From positions 64,001-128,000 of the IMG/VR virus record IMGVR_UViG_3300020048_000023: a stretch of DNA of 64,000 nt; one strand, given 5' to 3'. The notes beneath the pieces were generated by a model. It saw nothing but the letters and a program-made list of their open reading frames with translations. It made no database searches and had not been told where the DNA came from. This DNA is from a virus. Shown here one piece after another: positions 1 to 25,145 of the stretch; position 1 is the stretch's first letter, and every line of letters starts with the position of its first letter. The position numbers were made by a program, and so were the translations under genes.

Positions 1-18
1 GTAGAAAAGTATGCCAGT

Positions 19-531
19 GTGTTACAAGTGGTATTAAACAAGTTAAACACCAGAAAAGGTGAAAAAATTGCGTGGAAAGAGTTCACCAAAACCAATAAGG
101 TTAGTAGTTCTTTTGGCACCGCATTACAGCGAATAGGGCTGGTTGAGAAAATGGGCGATGGTAAATGCCGCAGCAACACCAGCGTTAATTATATTAGCCG
201 CAAAAATGCTGTTTCTATCGCAACCGTTATTAATGATAACGATATTCTGAGCAATCTTCAAAATGATGTTGTGCTTGGAACCGCGAAAGACGCCATCGCC
301 AAATTGGGTATACTGAGGTTACAGGATAAAGCCCCTAAGGTTAAAGTAGTCAAACCTGCACAGGCAATGCAACCAATGCAACCAATGCAACCAATACAAG
401 CAGCACAACCAGCACAGGCTCCGCCGCCAGTTGTAGTAGCTAAAGCCACGCCGCTTTACCTTCCTGACCTGAGTAATTACAGCACACAGGCATTATTAAC
501 AGAAATAGGCACAAGAATAATTTCAAAATAA
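19..531 (+). CDS. hypothetical protein with Q/P/A-rich low-complexity tail (may begin upstream of the window)
   Basis: 170-aa ORF; 9-nt tandem repeat CAATGCAAC at 365-400 encodes (QPM)n. Confidence 0.7.
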   Translation: MLQVVLNKLNTRKGEKIAWKEFTKTNKVSSSFGTALQRIGLVEKMGDGKCRSNTSVNYISRKNAVSIATVINDNDILSNLQNDVVLGTAKDAIAKLGILRLQDKAPKVKVVKPAQAMQPMQPMQPIQAAQPAQAPPPVVVAKATPLYLPDLSNYSTQALLTEIGTRIISK

Positions 532-563
532 TTTGGTAGTTCCAAATATTAGTTGTATTTTTG
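532..563 (+). promoter_or_regulatory. Bacteroidota housekeeping-sigma promoter
   Basis: TTTG-N20-TATTTTTG. Confidence 0.85.
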
Positions 564-611
564 CCGTTCTATTAAAAAAGAAAACTTTGTTTAACCTAAA
601 ACTTTAACGTT

Positions 612-1394
612 ATGAAGCAAAAGCTCAACACCCTCTTAGCATTGCGGGAGAAGTTCGAAACGACTTTTAAGAATGCACTCAACGACCTTGTAAACAAATT
701 CAAAAGTGAGCAAGGTTTATTCCAAGGCACACGTAAGACATACGAAGCCCTTGACAGTTTTGCTGATGAACCTAATAAACGTGTTTTTCGTAAGGTTGCT
801 TCAACCGTACAGGAACAGCTGGATTGGTTCAGAAAGTATAATACTGAATACCTGAAACAACTCTTTACCATTGAGAAAACCAACGGTTCTGGTTTGGCTA
901 AGGCTGAGCTTACCGTAGGCGGAACATCGTGGGGCGAGTTCACCTCAACCGAATTACTCCGTTTGAAAGGCTTTCTGGAAAACAACCAGTTGAAAGCTAT
1001 GTACAACACCATTCCTGTTCGTTCGGAAACCACCCTGTGGAAACCAACCGCCGACGACATTTACGCCGACCGTGGCGGAAAAATCTTCGAAGACACAATC
1101 GACGAAGGTTTCGCAAAAACCACGCTGAAAACGCAGTATATACTTACTGACCCACACCCTGACGCAAAACGCGCCCCGATTGTAGCCGACAAAACCGAAC
1201 AGGTAAACATCGGTCACTACACATCGCAGGACTTTTCAGGCGCCGCTTCCATCCGTGAACGCGCAGAAATGATCGCCCGTCTGGATTTGCTCCACAAGGC
1301 TGTTGTTGAAGCTCTTGAAAAAGCCAATGACGTTGAAGTTGTTGAATCAGTACTTGGCGACAAGCTGTTCAGCTACATTCACGACGGCAAATAA
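612..1394 (+). CDS. conserved helical/coiled-coil protein, DUF7873-like
   Basis: Motifs KLNTLLA, GLFQG-x-RKTY, TN-x3-AKAEL-x-V-x-G, ELL-x-L, G-x-YT-x3-FSGA, AV-x2-A-x3-AN resemble the family I recall as DUF7873; unverified. Confidence 0.65.
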   Translation: MKQKLNTLLALREKFETTFKNALNDLVNKFKSEQGLFQGTRKTYEALDSFADEPNKRVFRKVASTVQEQLDWFRKYNTEYLKQLFTIEKTNGSGLAKAELTVGGTSWGEFTSTELLRLKGFLENNQLKAMYNTIPVRSETTLWKPTADDIYADRGGKIFEDTIDEGFAKTTLKTQYILTDPHPDAKRAPIVADKTEQVNIGHYTSQDFSGAASIRERAEMIARLDLLHKAVVEALEKANDVEVVESVLGDKLFSYIHDGK

Positions 1395-1398
1395 AAGT

Positions 1399-1483
1399 AT
1401 GTTGCTGGGGTAACGATCCAATCTGTGTCGGGTCATAGTCGATATAGCAGAAAATGAATTAGACTACCAGCAACATCTTTTTT
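1399..1483 (+). ncRNA. candidate small structured RNA (closed stem, inner hairpin, possible pseudoknot, U-tract)
   Basis: ATGTTGCTGG(1399-1408)/CCAGCAACAT(1467-1476); CTGTGTCG/CGATATAG inner stem with two G-U pairs. Confidence 0.5.
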
Positions 1484-1515
1484 ACTTTTACAGTTCTTAA
1501 AAATATTGAAAATAA

Positions 1516-1800
1516 TGCTCAAGCATCAATGTTAGCTTAACTAAACCGTGATATTAACTTTACTTGTTAATGTCGTTGAGCACTAACATAAGCTTGAGAT
1601 TTATCCATTGATGCTACGAAATCACACTCAGGCAGTAAGGTCGTTTGTTCAAATCAAATCGAGCCCTCAAATAATAATGAAAATATATGGGCTCGGGGTG
1701 CGGGGGTTGCACGTACTGTAGTCTTGTTAGCATAAGTTTTCGTAAATGCATTGATAAACATTGATCGAAAGATCAGTTATGCCTTAGAAGCATAATACAT
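1516..1800 (+). ncRNA. large structured RNA with circularly permuted tRNA core (1632-1719)
   Basis: Order: CAGTA - AGGTC - T arm GTTTG/TTCAAAT/CAAAT - CGAGCCC - 22-nt linker - GGGCTCG - D arm GTGC/GCAC - TACTG; flanking long helices. Outer boundaries approximate. Confidence 0.8.
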
Positions 1801-1849
1801 ATGTTAAACTTCGGTAGGTGTCCACAGGATATAAGGGCACCTACCATAC

Positions 1850-1926
1850 GCGGGTCTGAAGGCAATTGGTTAGACCTATAGGAAGCACGGTTCCTATGCG
1901 TGGTGGTTCGAGTCCACTAACCCGCA
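1850..1926 (+). ncRNA. tRNA-like RNA / pseudo-tRNA with non-canonical anticodon arm
   Basis: Acceptor GCGGGTC/AACCCGC, D loop with GG, T arm GGTGG-TTCGAGT-CCACT; anticodon arm ATAGGAA/TTCCTAT with 6-nt loop GCACGG; no encoded CCA. Confidence 0.7.
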
Positions 1927-1948
1927 CTTAATTTAGCGTCGATATAAG

Positions 1949-1979
1949 AACTGGTGGGGATTTAATCCCCCCAGTTTTT
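1949..1979 (+). terminator. intrinsic terminator
   Basis: CTGGTGGGGA-TTTAA-TCCCCCCAG + T-tract. Confidence 0.8.
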
Positions 1980-15984: not shown

Positions 15985-17019
15985 ATGAAAGTTTTATTTT
16001 TGCTCAAGGATAGAGCGTATAACACCAACCAATCCAAGTCTTATGGCTTGAGTAATTCTGCTTGGCAGGTAGCAGAATATTTAATGACTCTCGGGTACGA
16101 ATGTGAATTAGTTTCAGTAATAGACGCTAATGCCATTGATAGAGAGCTGTTTAGGTATAAACCAGATGTTGCTATTATAGAAGCATTATGGGTTATGCCA
16201 GCTAAACTAAATGAGCTTATGGAAATTCCGCGCTATGCCAATATTCAGTGGATCGTTAGAATACATAGTGATATTGGTTTTTTAAGTGCGGAAACTATGG
16301 CGTCTAAAATAGTGAACGGCTACATCGAACTCGGTAAACAAAACCTGTATATCAGCACCAATCATGAAGACTTTAATAAGTACTACGGCGAAGCGCTGAG
16401 GTATGACTTTGTTTGTCTTCCAAACATCATCACCATTAAGAACGAAACCCCGCCTCACAAGGTAAACAGGGAGCGCATCGACATTGCCTGCTTTGGGGCA
16501 TTACGAACAATGAAGAATCAGGCATTCCAAGCTCTTTGCGCTATTCACGCTGCAAATAAAATGGAGAAGCATTTATACTTCCACGTTACAAACAACGCAG
16601 ATATGAGCGCACCTAACGCTAAACCAAACCCAGTATTGAGTAATTTGGAACAGATATTCAAGTATAGTGGTCACGACTTGGTTGTACACGATTGGATGAC
16701 TCATGATAAATTTGAAGAGCTTATTACCGAAATGGACTTAGGGCTGCAACTCAGTTTCAGCGAGAGCTTCAATATTGTTACAGCGGACTTTGTTAATATG
16801 GGTATACCGATTATTGTAAGTCCAGCTATTTCATGGATGTCTAGCATATACATGTCATCTACAACCAATTATGATAGGGTTACACGCGACATTATATTAT
16901 TTTATAAATTAAGAAATTGGGACTTCTTACGCAACCCAGCACGCGGGTCGTTACGAAAATACAATCGTAATTCCGAGAAACTCTGGAAACATTTTATGAA
17001 ATACATTGAAAAGGAATAA
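15985..17019 (+). CDS. GT-B (GT4-like) glycosyltransferase
   Basis: YGLSNSA, KPDVAIIE, FGALRTMKNQ, SFSESFNIVTAD...GIPIIVS. Confidence 0.75.
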   Translation: MKVLFLLKDRAYNTNQSKSYGLSNSAWQVAEYLMTLGYECELVSVIDANAIDRELFRYKPDVAIIEALWVMPAKLNELMEIPRYANIQWIVRIHSDIGFLSAETMASKIVNGYIELGKQNLYISTNHEDFNKYYGEALRYDFVCLPNIITIKNETPPHKVNRERIDIACFGALRTMKNQAFQALCAIHAANKMEKHLYFHVTNNADMSAPNAKPNPVLSNLEQIFKYSGHDLVVHDWMTHDKFEELITEMDLGLQLSFSESFNIVTADFVNMGIPIIVSPAISWMSSIYMSSTTNYDRVTRDIILFYKLRNWDFLRNPARGSLRKYNRNSEKLWKHFMKYIEKE

Positions 17020-18536: not shown

Positions 18537-20057
18537 ATGCACGCAATTGGTTTAATTTACAACGTAACCCACCCCAATTTCGACCCTTCGGTGTTTATGA
18601 GTACAACGGAAGAAAACCCGCTGTTAGCTCTGGACGTTTATAAAATGGGTCATATGGTGCAATACGCACCTGGAACCACCAAAGTCTATTCCTACCTTAC
18701 AACCCGTAGTGACAAGACGTTCGATAAAACCGTATTCTTCGGAACTGGTTATTATCTAAAACGCTACTTTTCCAAAAAGTTGGAGCCTTGGATGGCAGAG
18801 GAATTTATCTACCACGTACAGAACATTCTTGGTTCCTGTTCGACTGAGGTAGCGCTTAAAGCTCGCGCGTTATGCCAGCTTGGTTACATTCCGTTGGAAA
18901 TGAAAGCCGTTGAAGAAGGTACCGTAATGGGTATCCACAACGTATTAATGACAATCACCAACACACATCCCGATTTTGCTTGGGCTGTTGGTTTCTGGGA
19001 AAGCCTTTTTATCAAACTGTGGTATCCGATCACCGTTGCTTCCTGCTCGTACAAGTACAGGAAACTGGTTGACCGTTATTTCGACTTGACCGTTGACCCT
19101 GAAATGTACTTCCTGAAAGATTGGACTGTACACGATTTCGGCTACCGTGGCGACCAGTCGGAAGAAGGCGCTGCACTTAGCGGTGTATGCCACCTTATTT
19201 CATTCCTTGGTAGTGATACTGTGCCAGCGTTCAACTGCGCCCGTAAGTACTACAACGCCAATCCAAAACGCGACGCTATTATGGGTTCAGTACCAGCTTC
19301 GGAGCACAGTGTTATGTGTTCGTTCGGCAGGGACAACGAATTAGCCGCCTTTGAGAATATGCTTGAACTGTATCCTACTGGCATCGTCAGTATTGTATCA
19401 GATACGTTCAACGTATACACCGTTCTCACGGACTTCGCAGTACGTCTGAAATCACAGATACTTGCCCGATCGGGTAAAGTGGTATTCCGCCCTGACAGTG
19501 GTGATCCTGAGTATATTATATGCGGCGACCCTAACGCGCCAGAAGGAACACCAGAATGGAAGGGTGCTATACGCTTAGATCGGAAGCTGGATGAAGTTTT
19601 CGGTTCAACCGTAAACAGCAAAGGGTACAAAGTACTCAATCCGAAAGTAGGGTTGATCTACGGTGATGGTATGTACTACGAAAGGTACGAGCGCACCTTG
19701 AAACGCCTTATGGAAATGGGTTATGCCACAACCAACTTGGTAATCGGTGTAGGTGGTATTCTTCGCAACTGGACACGTGATACGCTCGGGTTTGCCGTAA
19801 AAGCTACCTACGTTGAAGTTGGCGGCTCTCCACGTGCTATCGAAAAAGACCCTATTACCGACCACAAAAAGAAATCGCACAAAGGTCTGCTATCCCTAAC
19901 TTGGGACGACGAGCATAAATACGTCACACACGACGAATGCACGCCCGAGGAAGAAGATAACACGATGTTGAAGGTTATCTACAGGGACGGCGTGGTTCTT
20001 AAAACATACGCTCTGGACGAAATTCGCAAACGTGCACGTTACGAAAAGGTATTTTAA
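18537..20057 (+). CDS. nadV: nicotinamide phosphoribosyltransferase-like protein (probable Namat of NARP1)
   Basis: DVYKMGH, HDFGYRG, SVPASEHSVM, SIVSDT, RPDSGDP, IYGDG, RDTLGFAVKAT, KKSHKG. Confidence 0.92.
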   Translation: MHAIGLIYNVTHPNFDPSVFMSTTEENPLLALDVYKMGHMVQYAPGTTKVYSYLTTRSDKTFDKTVFFGTGYYLKRYFSKKLEPWMAEEFIYHVQNILGSCSTEVALKARALCQLGYIPLEMKAVEEGTVMGIHNVLMTITNTHPDFAWAVGFWESLFIKLWYPITVASCSYKYRKLVDRYFDLTVDPEMYFLKDWTVHDFGYRGDQSEEGAALSGVCHLISFLGSDTVPAFNCARKYYNANPKRDAIMGSVPASEHSVMCSFGRDNELAAFENMLELYPTGIVSIVSDTFNVYTVLTDFAVRLKSQILARSGKVVFRPDSGDPEYIICGDPNAPEGTPEWKGAIRLDRKLDEVFGSTVNSKGYKVLNPKVGLIYGDGMYYERYERTLKRLMEMGYATTNLVIGVGGILRNWTRDTLGFAVKATYVEVGGSPRAIEKDPITDHKKKSHKGLLSLTWDDEHKYVTHDECTPEEEDNTMLKVIYRDGVVLKTYALDEIRKRARYEKVF

Positions 20058-23561: not shown

Positions 23562-25124
23562 ATGACAATCAAAGGAATTACAATCAAATGGCCAGTCTGG
23601 ATACTTTTACTTATCCTTGTAGGCATCGGAACTTACTTAGTAGCACCTAAGGTGCTCGGTAAAATGGGGTTCAGCAATGAAGTCCGCAAAGTAGCGATCA
23701 ACCCTTGGAGCCCCTATGGAGCTGAATTACGTCTTAACAACGGTATGGCTTACGACCCTGAAAGCAGAAACGCTAAAGAATTCGGGTTAAAAGTGGAATT
23801 TAAACGATTTGACGATCGTGCTCCTGCAATTTCTGCACTTATATCGAAAGATATTGACGCCGCTTGGGTTACAGTGGATATTATGTCAACAGAAGTATTC
23901 GAAGGTAGCGATCTTGCCAGTTTAGGGATTAGTTTAATCGGGTTTACCGATATATCAAGAGGCGCCGACGTTGTTGTAGTAGACAGGACTATTAAAAATG
24001 TACAGGATTTTAGGGGTAAAAAGGTAGCATATACCGACGCTTCCGCTTCGCTAACATTATTACTTAATCTTTTGGAATCAGCTAAAATGACTCTTGACGA
24101 TATTGTACCAGTTCGAGTCGCCAGTGGTATCAAAGCCGCCGAAATGTTTCAGAACCGCGAAGTACCTATAGCCGTTGTTTGGTCACCTGACGACGGTGAT
24201 TGTATAGCAAAAATAGAGGGCTCTTATAAATTTTTCGGTACAGATAAAGCACGAAATATTATTATGGACGGTCTAATTGTTCGTAAAGCTGATTTGGAAG
24301 ATAAAGCTTTCAGAACGTGGGCAACTAAACTTATGACTTCTTGGCTTGTTGGTAATGCCGAATGTAATCAGAGCGAAACAGCTAAAAAAGAAGCCGCCGT
24401 CATTTTCGATAAGTGCTTCACTGGTTATGGCGTTGAGATCGCAATGGCTGGTTTAAATGGAGTTAGGCTTACCACATATGAAGATAATAAAAACCTATTT
24501 GGGTTAAATGTATCGTTCACTGGTGTTACTGGCGAAAAGCTATACAGCCGAATGGCTAACATTTATTCTAAAGTACCAGACGGTAAAGGCTCCGTTCTTG
24601 CTAAGAATCCGCTTTCTTGGAAGGAGATTTCAAACGAAAGTATCATAAAGGAAATTACCACATTAACAGGTGTAGAGCATTCAGCAGAACCTGATGTTGT
24701 TAAGTTTGACCCAATATCTCAATCGCAGGAAAAGGTGGTTTCAGAAGCCACACCCGTTACAGCCATTAAAGTTATAATTAATTTTGCCGTTGGCTCAGCT
24801 GAGTTGGATGATTATGCTAAGACCATTCTTGACCGTGATGTTATGCCGTATGCCGAAGGGTTTAGCGGGTATCGTATTAGGGTAGAAGGTAATAGTGACG
24901 CCAGTGGAAACCAAACTGAAAAGGGCGCCGCATACAATAAAAGGTTATCTTTACAAAGGGCTCAGTCTGTTGTTAATTATATGATAAAGACAGGCAATTT
25001 TGACCCTAATCGTTTTACGAAGCCTATTGGTTGGGGGTTTGATAAACCGATATACCCAATAGAAAACGGTGAAAGCGAAAGTTCCGCTAACCGTAGAACG
25101 GAGATAAGTTTTATCAACGAGTAA
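23562..25124 (+). CDS. ABC substrate-binding protein (NMT1/THI5/SsuA-like) fused to C-terminal OmpA peptidoglycan-binding domain
   Basis: N-terminal TM; W-x-PY, DISRGAD, FRGKKVA, VWSP; OmpA: INFAVGSAEL, IRVEGNSD, NKRLSLQRAQSV, NRRTEI. Confidence 0.88.
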   Translation: MTIKGITIKWPVWILLLILVGIGTYLVAPKVLGKMGFSNEVRKVAINPWSPYGAELRLNNGMAYDPESRNAKEFGLKVEFKRFDDRAPAISALISKDIDAAWVTVDIMSTEVFEGSDLASLGISLIGFTDISRGADVVVVDRTIKNVQDFRGKKVAYTDASASLTLLLNLLESAKMTLDDIVPVRVASGIKAAEMFQNREVPIAVVWSPDDGDCIAKIEGSYKFFGTDKARNIIMDGLIVRKADLEDKAFRTWATKLMTSWLVGNAECNQSETAKKEAAVIFDKCFTGYGVEIAMAGLNGVRLTTYEDNKNLFGLNVSFTGVTGEKLYSRMANIYSKVPDGKGSVLAKNPLSWKEISNESIIKEITTLTGVEHSAEPDVVKFDPISQSQEKVVSEATPVTAIKVIINFAVGSAELDDYAKTILDRDVMPYAEGFSGYRIRVEGNSDASGNQTEKGAAYNKRLSLQRAQSVVNYMIKTGNFDPNRFTKPIGWGFDKPIYPIENGESESSANRRTEISFINE

Positions 25125-25145
25125 TTAATATTGTAGGAAAATAAG

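Follow-up and report, generated by a model that had tools for sequence, protein, structure and literature searches.

A circularly permuted tRNA-like RNA found with DUF7873 genes in phages and bacteria

To our knowledge, tRNA mimicry by noncoding RNA is confined to a few systems, namely tmRNA, the YrlA and Y RNAs, and viral tRNA-like structures. Each of these exposed a distinct mechanism of quality control or hijacking. In YrlA RNAs, the partners of Ro60/Rsr, the parts of a tRNA are arranged in the order anticodon stem, V loop, T arm, closed acceptor stem, D arm, and anticodon stem (PMC4201824; bioRxiv 10.1101/312249). The YrlA of M. smegmatis has a 7-bp acceptor stem, is cleaved by RNase P, and receives an added CCA (PMC4201824). 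Here, we describe an RNA with a permuted tRNA-like core that is encoded next to a gene of the DUF7873 family. The locus lies in a 64,000-nucleotide stretch of a phage genome (the window; positions 64,001 to 128,000 of IMG/VR record IMGVR_UViG_3300020048_000023), in which the DUF7873 gene ends at position 1394 and the permuted core starts at position 1633. Both are on the plus strand, as are all window features given below.

Architecture and conservation of the RNA

The permuted core occupies positions 1633 to 1718. It opens with the 3' strand of the anticodon stem, CAGTA (1633-1637), which is followed by the V loop AGGTC (1638-1642), the T arm (1643-1659), the acceptor 3' strand CGAGCCC (1660-1666), and U73 (1667). 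C74 (1668) is the first nucleotide of a linker (1668-1688), after which come the acceptor 5' strand GGGCTCG (1689-1695) and a GG, the D arm (1698-1712) and a single G, and the anticodon-stem 5' strand TACTG (1714-1718). An earlier note on this DNA had proposed this arrangement, and we located every element where the note had placed it, including the closed 7-bp acceptor stem and the missing anticodon loop. The note had also called the noncoding stretch highly base-paired; its fold has a z-score of -5.8, and none of 100 shuffled sequences equaled it.

Covariation gives strong support to the core. In 8 relatives, 98.2% of alignment cells are paired (30-42% in slid controls) and 15 of the 21 pairs show compensatory changes; in 37 sequences, the values are 96.9% (slid controls, 40-50%) and 19 of 21, the covariation alignment (A6) having been fitted to the model. 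The nucleotides that form the tertiary structure of tRNA (the Levitt pair, 8:14, G18G19, and the T loop) are conserved across the core alignment, and the 15:48 and 8:14 pairs covary. Among the 37 sequences, Levitt pair 15:48 is G:C in 26, A:U in 6, U:A in 2, and G:U in 2, with position 48 gapped in 1, and pair 8:14 is U:A in 25, G:G in 6, C:G in 4, and A:U and A:A in 1 each; the window core carries the G8/G14 variant, which replaces the UA dinucleotide. U73 is present in 35 and C74 in all 37 of these sequences, CCA is encoded in 3, and the linker is hypervariable across relatives, ranging from 16 to 203 nt. When the R1 model was run on the 64-kb window at E ≤ 1e-5, the core was the only match (107.5 bits).

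The core is one domain of a structured RNA of ~410 nt that extends from about 1518 to 1926, and an RNAalifold consensus covering its full length (alignment A4) has compensatory changes at 47 of 90 pairs. According to this consensus, the RNA begins with a 5' hairpin domain (1518-1598) that contains the sequence AACCGUG (1544-1550), referred to below as the receptor, and UYAR motifs at 6-nt spacing (a peak of 33 counts at 6 nt, versus about 1-17 at other spacings). The equivalent of the anticodon stem is extended by a helix, P3, whose 5' strand (1615-1621) pairs with 1738-1744 and shows compensatory changes in relatives. In the alignments, the 3' strand of P3 shares the interval 1722-1744 with a conserved block, UCUUGUUAGC (1722-1731). 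P3 corresponds to TACGAAA/TTTCGTA, one of several helices that the earlier note had drawn outward from the core; the outermost of these, TTTATC/GATAAA, is unsupported, as it shows no covariation and TTTATCC is conserved as sequence but its proposed partner is not. Two small hairpins, one with a GAAA loop (1762-1775) and the other at 1777-1797, recur at the same places in relatives with changed stems, although support for them is weaker than for the core. They are followed by a hairpin at 1813-1845, for which the matching RNAalifold pairs (330-362 of A4) show compensatory changes. Its conserved loop, AGGAUAU(A/U)(A/G)A, has the AGGAUAU motif kept at distant loci.

At its 3' end, the RNA contains a second tRNA-like module (1850-1926), this time in normal order, which is supported by covariation and has a weak Rfam match to tRNA-Sec (19.8 bits). 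It consists of an acceptor stem, a class-II-like D arm, a T arm (loop, 1907-1913), and A73 at 1926, and the anticodon arm is replaced by a 7-bp hairpin with the 6-nt loop GCACGG (1885-1890). This loop docks on the 5' hairpin through a kissing contact between the receptor (1544-1550) and positions 1886-1892. The kissing partners covary in relatives (e.g., CUGCGU/ACGCAG and UGAUAGCAU/AUGCUAUCA), and in a test that took only the apex of the hairpin and the loop at the anticodon position, complementarity of at least 6 nt was found in 81% of own pairs versus 38% of mismatched pairs. When the 5' and 3' domains were compared for complementarity without such a restriction, the signal was drowned by chance AT-rich matches. 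ARAGORN labels the second module of relatives tRNA-Pyl(cta) or tRNA-???, which we take to be an anticodon imposed on the docking loop by the program. The hairpin at 1813-1845, the second module, and the kissing contact had all been omitted from the earlier note, which was incomplete in this respect.

The RNA family is absent from Rfam. The window has no Rfam match at the gathering threshold, and relaxing the limit to E ≤ 10 for positions 1380-2045 produced noise in addition to the tRNA-Sec match. ARAGORN found no tRNA and no tmRNA in the window, and a blastn search of phage records with the RNA returned no match. A DNA pattern search for the 5' hairpin retrieved only two loci (L020 and L021), both coding false positives, and a 14-mer around GCACGG gave 118 matches that were mostly random.

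The DUF7873 gene and its linkage to the RNA

The DUF7873 gene (612-1394) encodes a protein of 260 amino acids, of which residues 3-257 are covered by Pfam profile PF25283 (E = 1.1e-39; 137.1 bits versus a gathering cut-off of 27). We collected 73 homologues with 41-95% identity, and found no paper in the literature that mentions DUF7873. PHROGs, NCBIfam, PADLOC, and a PDB sequence profile gave no matches to the protein, nor did a single-protein scan of IMG/VR. An AF2 model (mean pLDDT, 87.5) appears to have no convincing fold match among solved structures: the best Foldseek match in the PDB (E = 0.008; TM < 0.25) and the best matches in the VIA wide structure search (helical bundles; Z = 6.4) were both uninformative. 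The protein is predicted to form a homodimer, with a score of 0.72 compared to at best 0.00 for three controls, at least 97% of contacts agreeing among runs, and a partner pLDDT of at least 87. In calibration, the mark for a dimer was reached by 20 of 30 proteins whose solved structures are pairs of one chain and by 1 of 23 solved as a single chain, counts that are only approximate here because we used an alignment of our own.

The pairing of gene and RNA recurs widely. An R1 module lies downstream of the DUF7873 gene in 8 of 8 close relatives, in 11 of 12 loci from Bacteroidota genomes, and in 42 of 44 IMG/VR loci whose proteins share 35-68% identity. In 36 of the IMG/VR loci, the module follows the gene on the same strand at a distance of 115-420 nt, and six further loci have R1 modules with linkers of 59-203 nt. 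We also observed the linkage in Vibrio phage D505, Rhizobium phage RHph_Y65, Klebsiella phage FBKp24, and Arthrobacter phage Racecar, the last of which agrees with the earlier note's mention of such an RNA downstream of actinobacterial homologues. The pairing occurs in phages whose hosts are Bacteroidota, Proteobacteria, and Actinobacteria as well as in Bacteroidota genomes, and it persists across host phyla to about 25% protein identity. Pseudanabaena phage PA-SR01 and one further locus (L152) have no R1 match downstream of DUF7873. In Lak-A1, gene and RNA are both present but lie 180 kb apart; therefore, the two co-occur even when unlinked, and adjacency is not obligatory. Overall, the pairing seen in nearly every homologous locus examined supports the proposal that DUF7873 is associated with a scaffold RNA that mimics tRNA.

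The layout of the locus does not support a single shared promoter, as the earlier note had assumed for protein and RNA. A putative promoter of the Bacteroidota type (TTTG ... TAnnTTTG; 532-563) precedes the DUF7873 gene. Its motif is repeated at 1988-2019, before the next gene. Between the gene and the RNA, the minimum free energy fold places a long hairpin followed by a U-run (1397-1484), which may act as a terminator or attenuator, and an analogous hairpin plus U-run separates gene and RNA in one relative (L011). Immediately downstream is a promoter-like motif, TTTACA-18-AATAAT (1487-1516), which matches the consensus at 10 of 12 positions, overlaps the conserved sequence GTTCTTAAAAATATTGAAAATA, and is kept in relatives; its sole other copy in the genome (G000) is at 16778, before a tRNA block. 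The presence in this clade of a hairpin resembling a terminator and of a separate motif resembling a promoter, both in the gap, counts against a functional coupling of gene and RNA. The terminator that the earlier note had placed at the end of the RNA unit was recovered at 1951-1979 by a terminator scan and by folding.

A proposed RNP and its alternatives

Based on the structure of the RNA, its conservation, and its linkage to the gene, we hypothesize that positions 1518-1926 encode a trans-acting RNA with two tRNA-like heads that is functionally coupled to DUF7873, most likely in a ribonucleoprotein (RNP); we put the chances of this reading at about even. A DUF7873 dimer would bind the non-tRNA scaffold of the RNA, and the two heads would be presented to tRNA-binding enzymes, in analogy to the way in which a Y RNA tethers an effector to Ro60, but here free of Ro60. 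RNase P would cut at the acceptor 5' strand, and 3' trimming and CCA completion would probably proceed as they do for the real tRNAs of the phage, so that the permuted module would become a tRNA mimic made of two pieces and ending in CCA. The 3' trailer of the RNA, N73-C-(A/U)-A, is the same as that of the 28 tRNAs of the phage, and this trailer, the conservation of U73 and C74, and the hypervariable linker are compatible with such an opening of the acceptor. The phage also encodes a CCA-adding domain. Two features of the protein count against the RNP reading: its median pI is near-neutral (6.2), and structure and profile searches reveal no recognizable RNA-binding fold. A broader interpretation, which we offer tentatively and regard as possible but rather doubtful, is that DUF7873 dimers and this RNA constitute a new, Ro60-independent class of tRNA-mimic RNP with two CCA-ended heads after maturation by RNase P and a CCA enzyme, and that in many phages and bacteria this class serves tRNA surveillance or, together with RtcB and the CCA-adding enzyme, tRNA repair, or else acts as a decoy for tRNA-targeting nucleases. 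If the RNP exists, it would provide a new class of partner for tRNA-mimic RNAs and a function for DUF7873, and it would correct recurrent misannotations in the form of suppressor or "Pyl" tRNAs and small open reading frames called over the RNA.

A role for Ro60 has to be weighed because of what the phage encodes elsewhere. As the earlier note had stated, the window contains no TROVE gene; however, the same phage carries a TROVE+VWA gene 40 kb upstream (G000 23690-25129; the core is at G000 65633-65718). About 5 kb from it lies a canonical, tetraloop-closed YrlA-like RNA (G000 18629-18702), and the phage also encodes RtcB, a set that the note had missed. Since the phage also encodes Ro60, this protein may be used here as well, and the RNA could be a Y RNA that has diverged within the YrlA class and partners the phage Ro60/Rsr, with DUF7873 an unrelated neighbor or accessory factor. 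The shared topology (PMC4201824; bioRxiv 10.1101/312249) favors this idea, as do the presence of TROVE+VWA and RtcB in the phage, R1 matches to YrlA-like RNAs beside TROVE genes in a Rhizobium phage (35.6 bits) and a Streptomyces phage (27.9 bits), and a DUF7873 unit 5 kb from TROVE in RHph_Y65. We nevertheless consider it unlikely. The Rfam YrlA model (RF02553; gathering score, 69 bits) scores 39.7 bits on the canonical RNA, yet the element falls short of the gathering score, and at E ≤ 10 the model has no match in positions 1380-2045 or G000 65631-65733. The Ro-binding motif GNCGAAN0-1G, expected close to the 5' end, is not conserved: UACGAAA (1615-1621) resembles it in the window, but relatives have CCAAGGGG, CCAGAGGG, or CUAAAGAG in this position, and we therefore rejected this sequence as a Ro site. 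The element also lacks the AGUUACWUCAA motif common to RNAs at TROVE loci, its 40-kb distance from TROVE compares with at most 4 kb for known YrlAs, and TROVE was found in 0 of 5 other DUF7873 phages examined. Two phages that do carry TROVE, crAss001 and Kradal, have no DUF7873, and their R1 matches are no more than weak.

The tRNA-like modules might instead work chiefly by drawing off tRNA-targeting nucleases or tRNA-processing enzymes, as a decoy or sponge would, with DUF7873 only stabilizing or regulating the RNA. This account is a functional variant of the RNP explanation. It would suit the position of the unit in or close to tRNA arrays in many phages, the strict conservation of the tertiary core in an RNA whose anticodon loop is missing or hidden in the kissing contact, and the RNA-repair set of the phage, which comprises RtcB, a CCA-adding domain, and Ro60. 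We judge it improbable, since PADLOC finds no defense or counter-defense family, members of the RNA family are found on bacterial genome contigs too, and the RNA exposes no anticodon loop, the part that most anticodon nucleases recognize. The core might also be a permuted tRNA gene, in which the outer ends of the transcript would be cut and ligated (e.g., by the phage RtcB) into an anticodon loop and removal of the linker would then give a functional tRNA, the route taken in Cyanidioschyzon merolae. The 7-bp acceptor stem, tRNA-type trailer, excisable linker, and RtcB gene 4.7 kb upstream would fit, but the anticodon-stem strands have no conserved 7-nt loop or U33-type flank, the spacing between the stem and the conserved 3' block varies (0 or 3 nt), the stem runs on into covarying helices, and ARAGORN detects no tRNA in the window. 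No 7-nt anticodon loop is either encoded or reconstitutable, the second module having its 6-nt docking loop, and we regard this explanation as very unlikely. Hardly plausible at all is a permuted RNA of the two-piece tmRNA kind with a short tag encoded in its 5' hairpin, where GCN-UUA repeats would be translated as Ala-Leu. The order of T arm, acceptor 3' strand, linker, and acceptor 5' strand is that of such an RNA, and by eye the 5' domain contains short frames such as ASMLA, ALVLA, and ALALDLAL, each ending in a stop. However, these Ala/Leu-rich frames vary in length, stop early in L010, and have no conserved resume context, and an RNA-level account explains the 6-nt periodicity equally well. 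Neither ARAGORN, whose search includes permuted tmRNA, nor the tmRNA models of Rfam give a match, G3:U70 is found in only 3 of 37 sequences with G3:C70 in the window, the D and anticodon stems are complete, and the phage has no SmpB.

Comparison with known systems

In T-box Stem I, the specifier pairs with an anticodon, and in the RNA element the loop at the anticodon position of a tRNA-shaped module likewise contacts a short receptor, which lies in a hairpin of the scaffold. The contact in the RNA element is intramolecular, however, comprises 5-9 bp rather than a codon-like triplet, and is accompanied by no evident antiterminator or expression platform, so the resemblance is one of mechanism only. 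A second comparison is with two-piece tmRNA and SmpB. There too, the T arm and acceptor 3' strand precede the acceptor 5' strand, the linker is excised, and the resulting tRNA mimic has a dedicated small protein, features to which the putative linker excision and proposed partner of the RNA element are comparable. The RNA element differs in that it lacks G3:U70, appears to have no convincing tag frame, keeps its D arm and anticodon stem complete, escapes detection by ARAGORN and Rfam, and has a partner that is not SmpB-like.

YrlA with Ro60/Rsr also shares features with the RNA element. Both have a permuted tRNA body that is entered through the equivalent of the anticodon stem and keeps its tertiary pairs, both are often encoded among phage tRNA genes, and the 7-bp acceptor stem is that of the M. 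smegmatis YrlA. Unlike YrlA, the RNA element is unmatched by the Rfam model and has no conserved GNCGAA motif, and it is linked to DUF7873, lying far from TROVE here and occurring also in TROVE-less phages. The RNA is not an ordinary YrlA. With Ro60 and a canonical YrlA-like RNA in the same phage, the two systems can be compared within one genome. YrlA has a short closing loop, whereas the RNA element has a long AU-rich linker and a tRNA-type trailer, and it adds a kissing-docked second tRNA-like module and a 6-nt repeat track.

A permuted tRNA core downstream of the DUF7873 gene

The DUF7873 gene (window 612-1394) encodes a full-length protein matching PF25283 (E 1.1e-39) and lies in a 160.9-kb IMG/VR virus record with Bacteroidota-type promoters; the window spans bases 64001-128000 of that record. 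The 590 nt after this open reading frame contain no plausible genes; the stretch folds far better than shuffled sequences (z -5.8) and is ended by a terminator. Upstream, an open reading frame at window 1-531 (176 amino acids, open at the window start) carries a Q-P-M/A-rich low-complexity stretch, QPMQPMQPIQAAQPAQAPPP, and has no family match. In relatives, a gene of ~240 amino acids occupies this position, with a PIF1-type helicase ahead of it.

An earlier note on this DNA had described a circularly permuted tRNA-like RNA (the core, 1633-1718) after the DUF7873 gene. Our reading of the sequence confirmed this observation, and each of the permuted elements is present where it was described. 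ARAGORN calls neither a tRNA nor a tmRNA in the window, and the window RNA matches no Rfam family. Starting from DUF7873 homologues at 95-60% identity, we traced eight distinct metagenomic contigs. In every one, 440-770 nt without a gene follow DUF7873, and all eight contain a permuted core with differing stem sequences. In the alignment of these relatives (A3), 98.2% of cells are paired, versus 30-42% in slid controls, and both partners are changed in 15 of 21 pairs. With R1, a covariance model built on the core, we gathered 37 distinct members; in an alignment fitted to that model, 96.9% of cells are paired and compensatory changes occur in 19 of 21 pairs. The tertiary positions also covary as in tRNA across these 37 sequences: the Levitt pair 15:48 is G:C in 26, A:U in 6, U:A in 2, and G:U in 2, and pair 8:14 is U:A in 25, G:G in 6 (the window among them), and C:G in 4. 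Because both stems and tertiary positions covary as in tRNA, the core almost certainly adopts the tRNA L-shape.

The larger RNA and its transcription

Comparative folding places the permuted core within a larger RNA, as one of its domains. An RNAalifold consensus of seven relatives, with compensatory changes in 47 of 90 pairs, supports a 5' hairpin (1518-1598), helix P3 (1615-1621 with 1738-1744), the core itself, a hairpin whose AGGAUAU loop is conserved (1813-1845), and, at 1850-1926, a second tRNA-like module arranged in normal order. The D arm of this second module is class-II-like, and the place of the anticodon arm is taken by a 7-bp hairpin with an invariant 6-nt loop, GCACGG. This loop is complementary to AACCGUG (1544-1550) of the 5' hairpin, both sides co-vary in relatives, and complementarity of at least 6 nt is found in 81% of own loop-receptor pairs versus 38% of mismatched pairs. 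ARAGORN calls of "tRNA-Pyl(cta)" and "tRNA-???" in relatives were rejected, as they correspond to the docking loop of the second module. UYAR motifs recur in the 5' domain, sharply spaced at 6 nt. In one relative (L016 4150-4225), an apparent genuine tRNA-Arg(UCU), identified by eye from the fold, separates the AGGAUAU hairpin from the second module; such an insertion would agree with the unit being processed by the tRNA maturation machinery.

A long hairpin with a U-run lies 3' of the DUF7873 gene (1397-1484), and beyond it is a promoter-like motif kept in relatives (1487-1516). The motif GTTCTTAAAAATATTGAA has only two copies in the 160-kb record, one preceding the window RNA (window 1493-1514) and the other preceding a tRNA block (G000:C1:16778-16799 in whole-record coordinates), and may represent a type of promoter dedicated to stable RNAs. 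For most of the distant members, the start of the RNA is no more than tens of bases from the DUF7873 stop codon; co-transcription of gene and RNA is likely there.

Coupling of the RNA to DUF7873

In 36 of 44 IMG/VR loci encoding DUF7873 homologues at 35-68% identity, R1 matches strongly on the same strand, 115-420 nt downstream. Six more contain the corresponding 5' acceptor strand and D arm beyond a 59-203-nt linker; of the remainder, one is truncated and one is without a downstream match. The gene-then-permuted-module pattern is found in 11 of 12 Bacteroidota genome loci, and the same arrangement occurs in Vibrio phage D505, Rhizobium phage RHph_Y65, Klebsiella phage FBKp24, and Arthrobacter phage Racecar, the last with two permuted modules in tandem. 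In Lak-A1, nothing but a terminator and a convergent gene comes after DUF7873, and an RNA with the family hallmarks lies 180 kb away; thus, gene and RNA are found together in a genome even without linkage. Pseudanabaena phage PA-SR01, with DUF7873 at 25% identity, has no R1 match. These results bear out part of the earlier note's interpretation: gene and RNA are strongly coupled across loci, and the protein is a putative binding partner of the RNA. The public records of two of these phages are likely misannotated over the RNA: a "tRNA-Sup-TTA" overlapping a permuted module in FBKp24 (L217 3012-3091) and two small hypothetical CDSs drawn over the RNA in D505 (L003 3778-4020). We found no paper mentioning DUF7873, nor any on such permuted tRNA-like RNAs in phages.

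The AF2 model of DUF7873 is confident (pLDDT 87.5) and has no convincing match to solved folds. The family has a median pI of 6.2, a dozen conserved basic positions, and many conserved aromatic positions. A homodimer is predicted with a score of 0.72, versus 0.00 for the best of three controls, with agreement between runs in at least 97% of contacts and partner pLDDT of at least 87. Of proteins solved as one-chain pairs, 20 of 30 reach the mark, as does 1 of 23 solved as single chains; these counts are only rough because our own alignment was used. A DUF7873 dimer facing two tRNA-like heads would make an attractive picture.

Proposed end processing and comparison with Ro60-YrlA

After the acceptor 3' strand, U73 is kept in 35 and C74 in all of the 37 members, three of which encode CCA. 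An N73-C-(A/U)-A trailer is common to the core and the phage's 28 genuine tRNAs, and the linker between the acceptor strands is unconserved (16-203 nt). Given these features and the precedent of Mycobacterium smegmatis YrlA, whose 7-bp acceptor stem resides in an RNA that is cut by RNase P and given CCA (PMC4201824), the earlier suggestion that the core opens into a two-piece, CCA-ended mimic seems plausible. The phage encodes RtcB (G000:C1:59781-60872, 215.8 bits) upstream of the DUF7873 gene, at a distance of 4.7 kb, and a CCA-adding (PolyA_pol) domain around G000:C1 50049-50456 (minus strand), which is part of an open frame of 2545 aa. Taken with Ro60 and YrlA, these form a full RNA-repair set.

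The core shares the YrlA topology (PMC4201824; bioRxiv 10.1101/312249), R1 also matches YrlA-like RNAs next to the TROVE genes of other phages, and this phage has its own TROVE+VWA protein (G000 23690-25129), all of which would suit a Ro60 partner. The Rfam YrlA model, however, does not match the window element. It scores 39.7 bits (gathering score 69) on a canonical YrlA-like permuted tRNA outside the window, ~47 kb upstream (G000:C1:18629-18702). That RNA lies in a tRNA array between tRNA-Thr and tRNA-Asp, ~5 kb from TROVE, and has an 8-bp acceptor stem, a UUCG tetraloop closure, a UA dinucleotide, and a standard D loop. The UACGAAA of the window, similar to the GNCGAA motif, is not kept in relatives, and the motif common to TROVE-locus RNAs is absent from the window element.

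Structured RNAs at TROVE loci share ..(A/G)AGUUAC(U/A)UCAA.. (G000:C1:22700-23400; crAss001, L017 5500-6130; Rhizobium phage, L019 2700-3900), which is similar to a part of human Y1 RNA, GAGUUAUCUCAA. In the Rhizobium phage, GUUGCGA is repeated ~8 times upstream of TROVE.

TROVE is absent from five DUF7873 phages, and DUF7873 from two TROVE phages. It is conceivable that Ro60 also contacts the window RNA in this phage. Readings of the RNA as a Ro60 partner, a permuted pre-tRNA, or a tmRNA-like molecule do not fit as well as that of an RNA coupled to DUF7873. Because the YrlA model misses the element, Ro-type motifs are unkept or absent, and TROVE and DUF7873 occur separately, the DUF7873-RNA and Ro60-YrlA systems are distinct and independently distributed.
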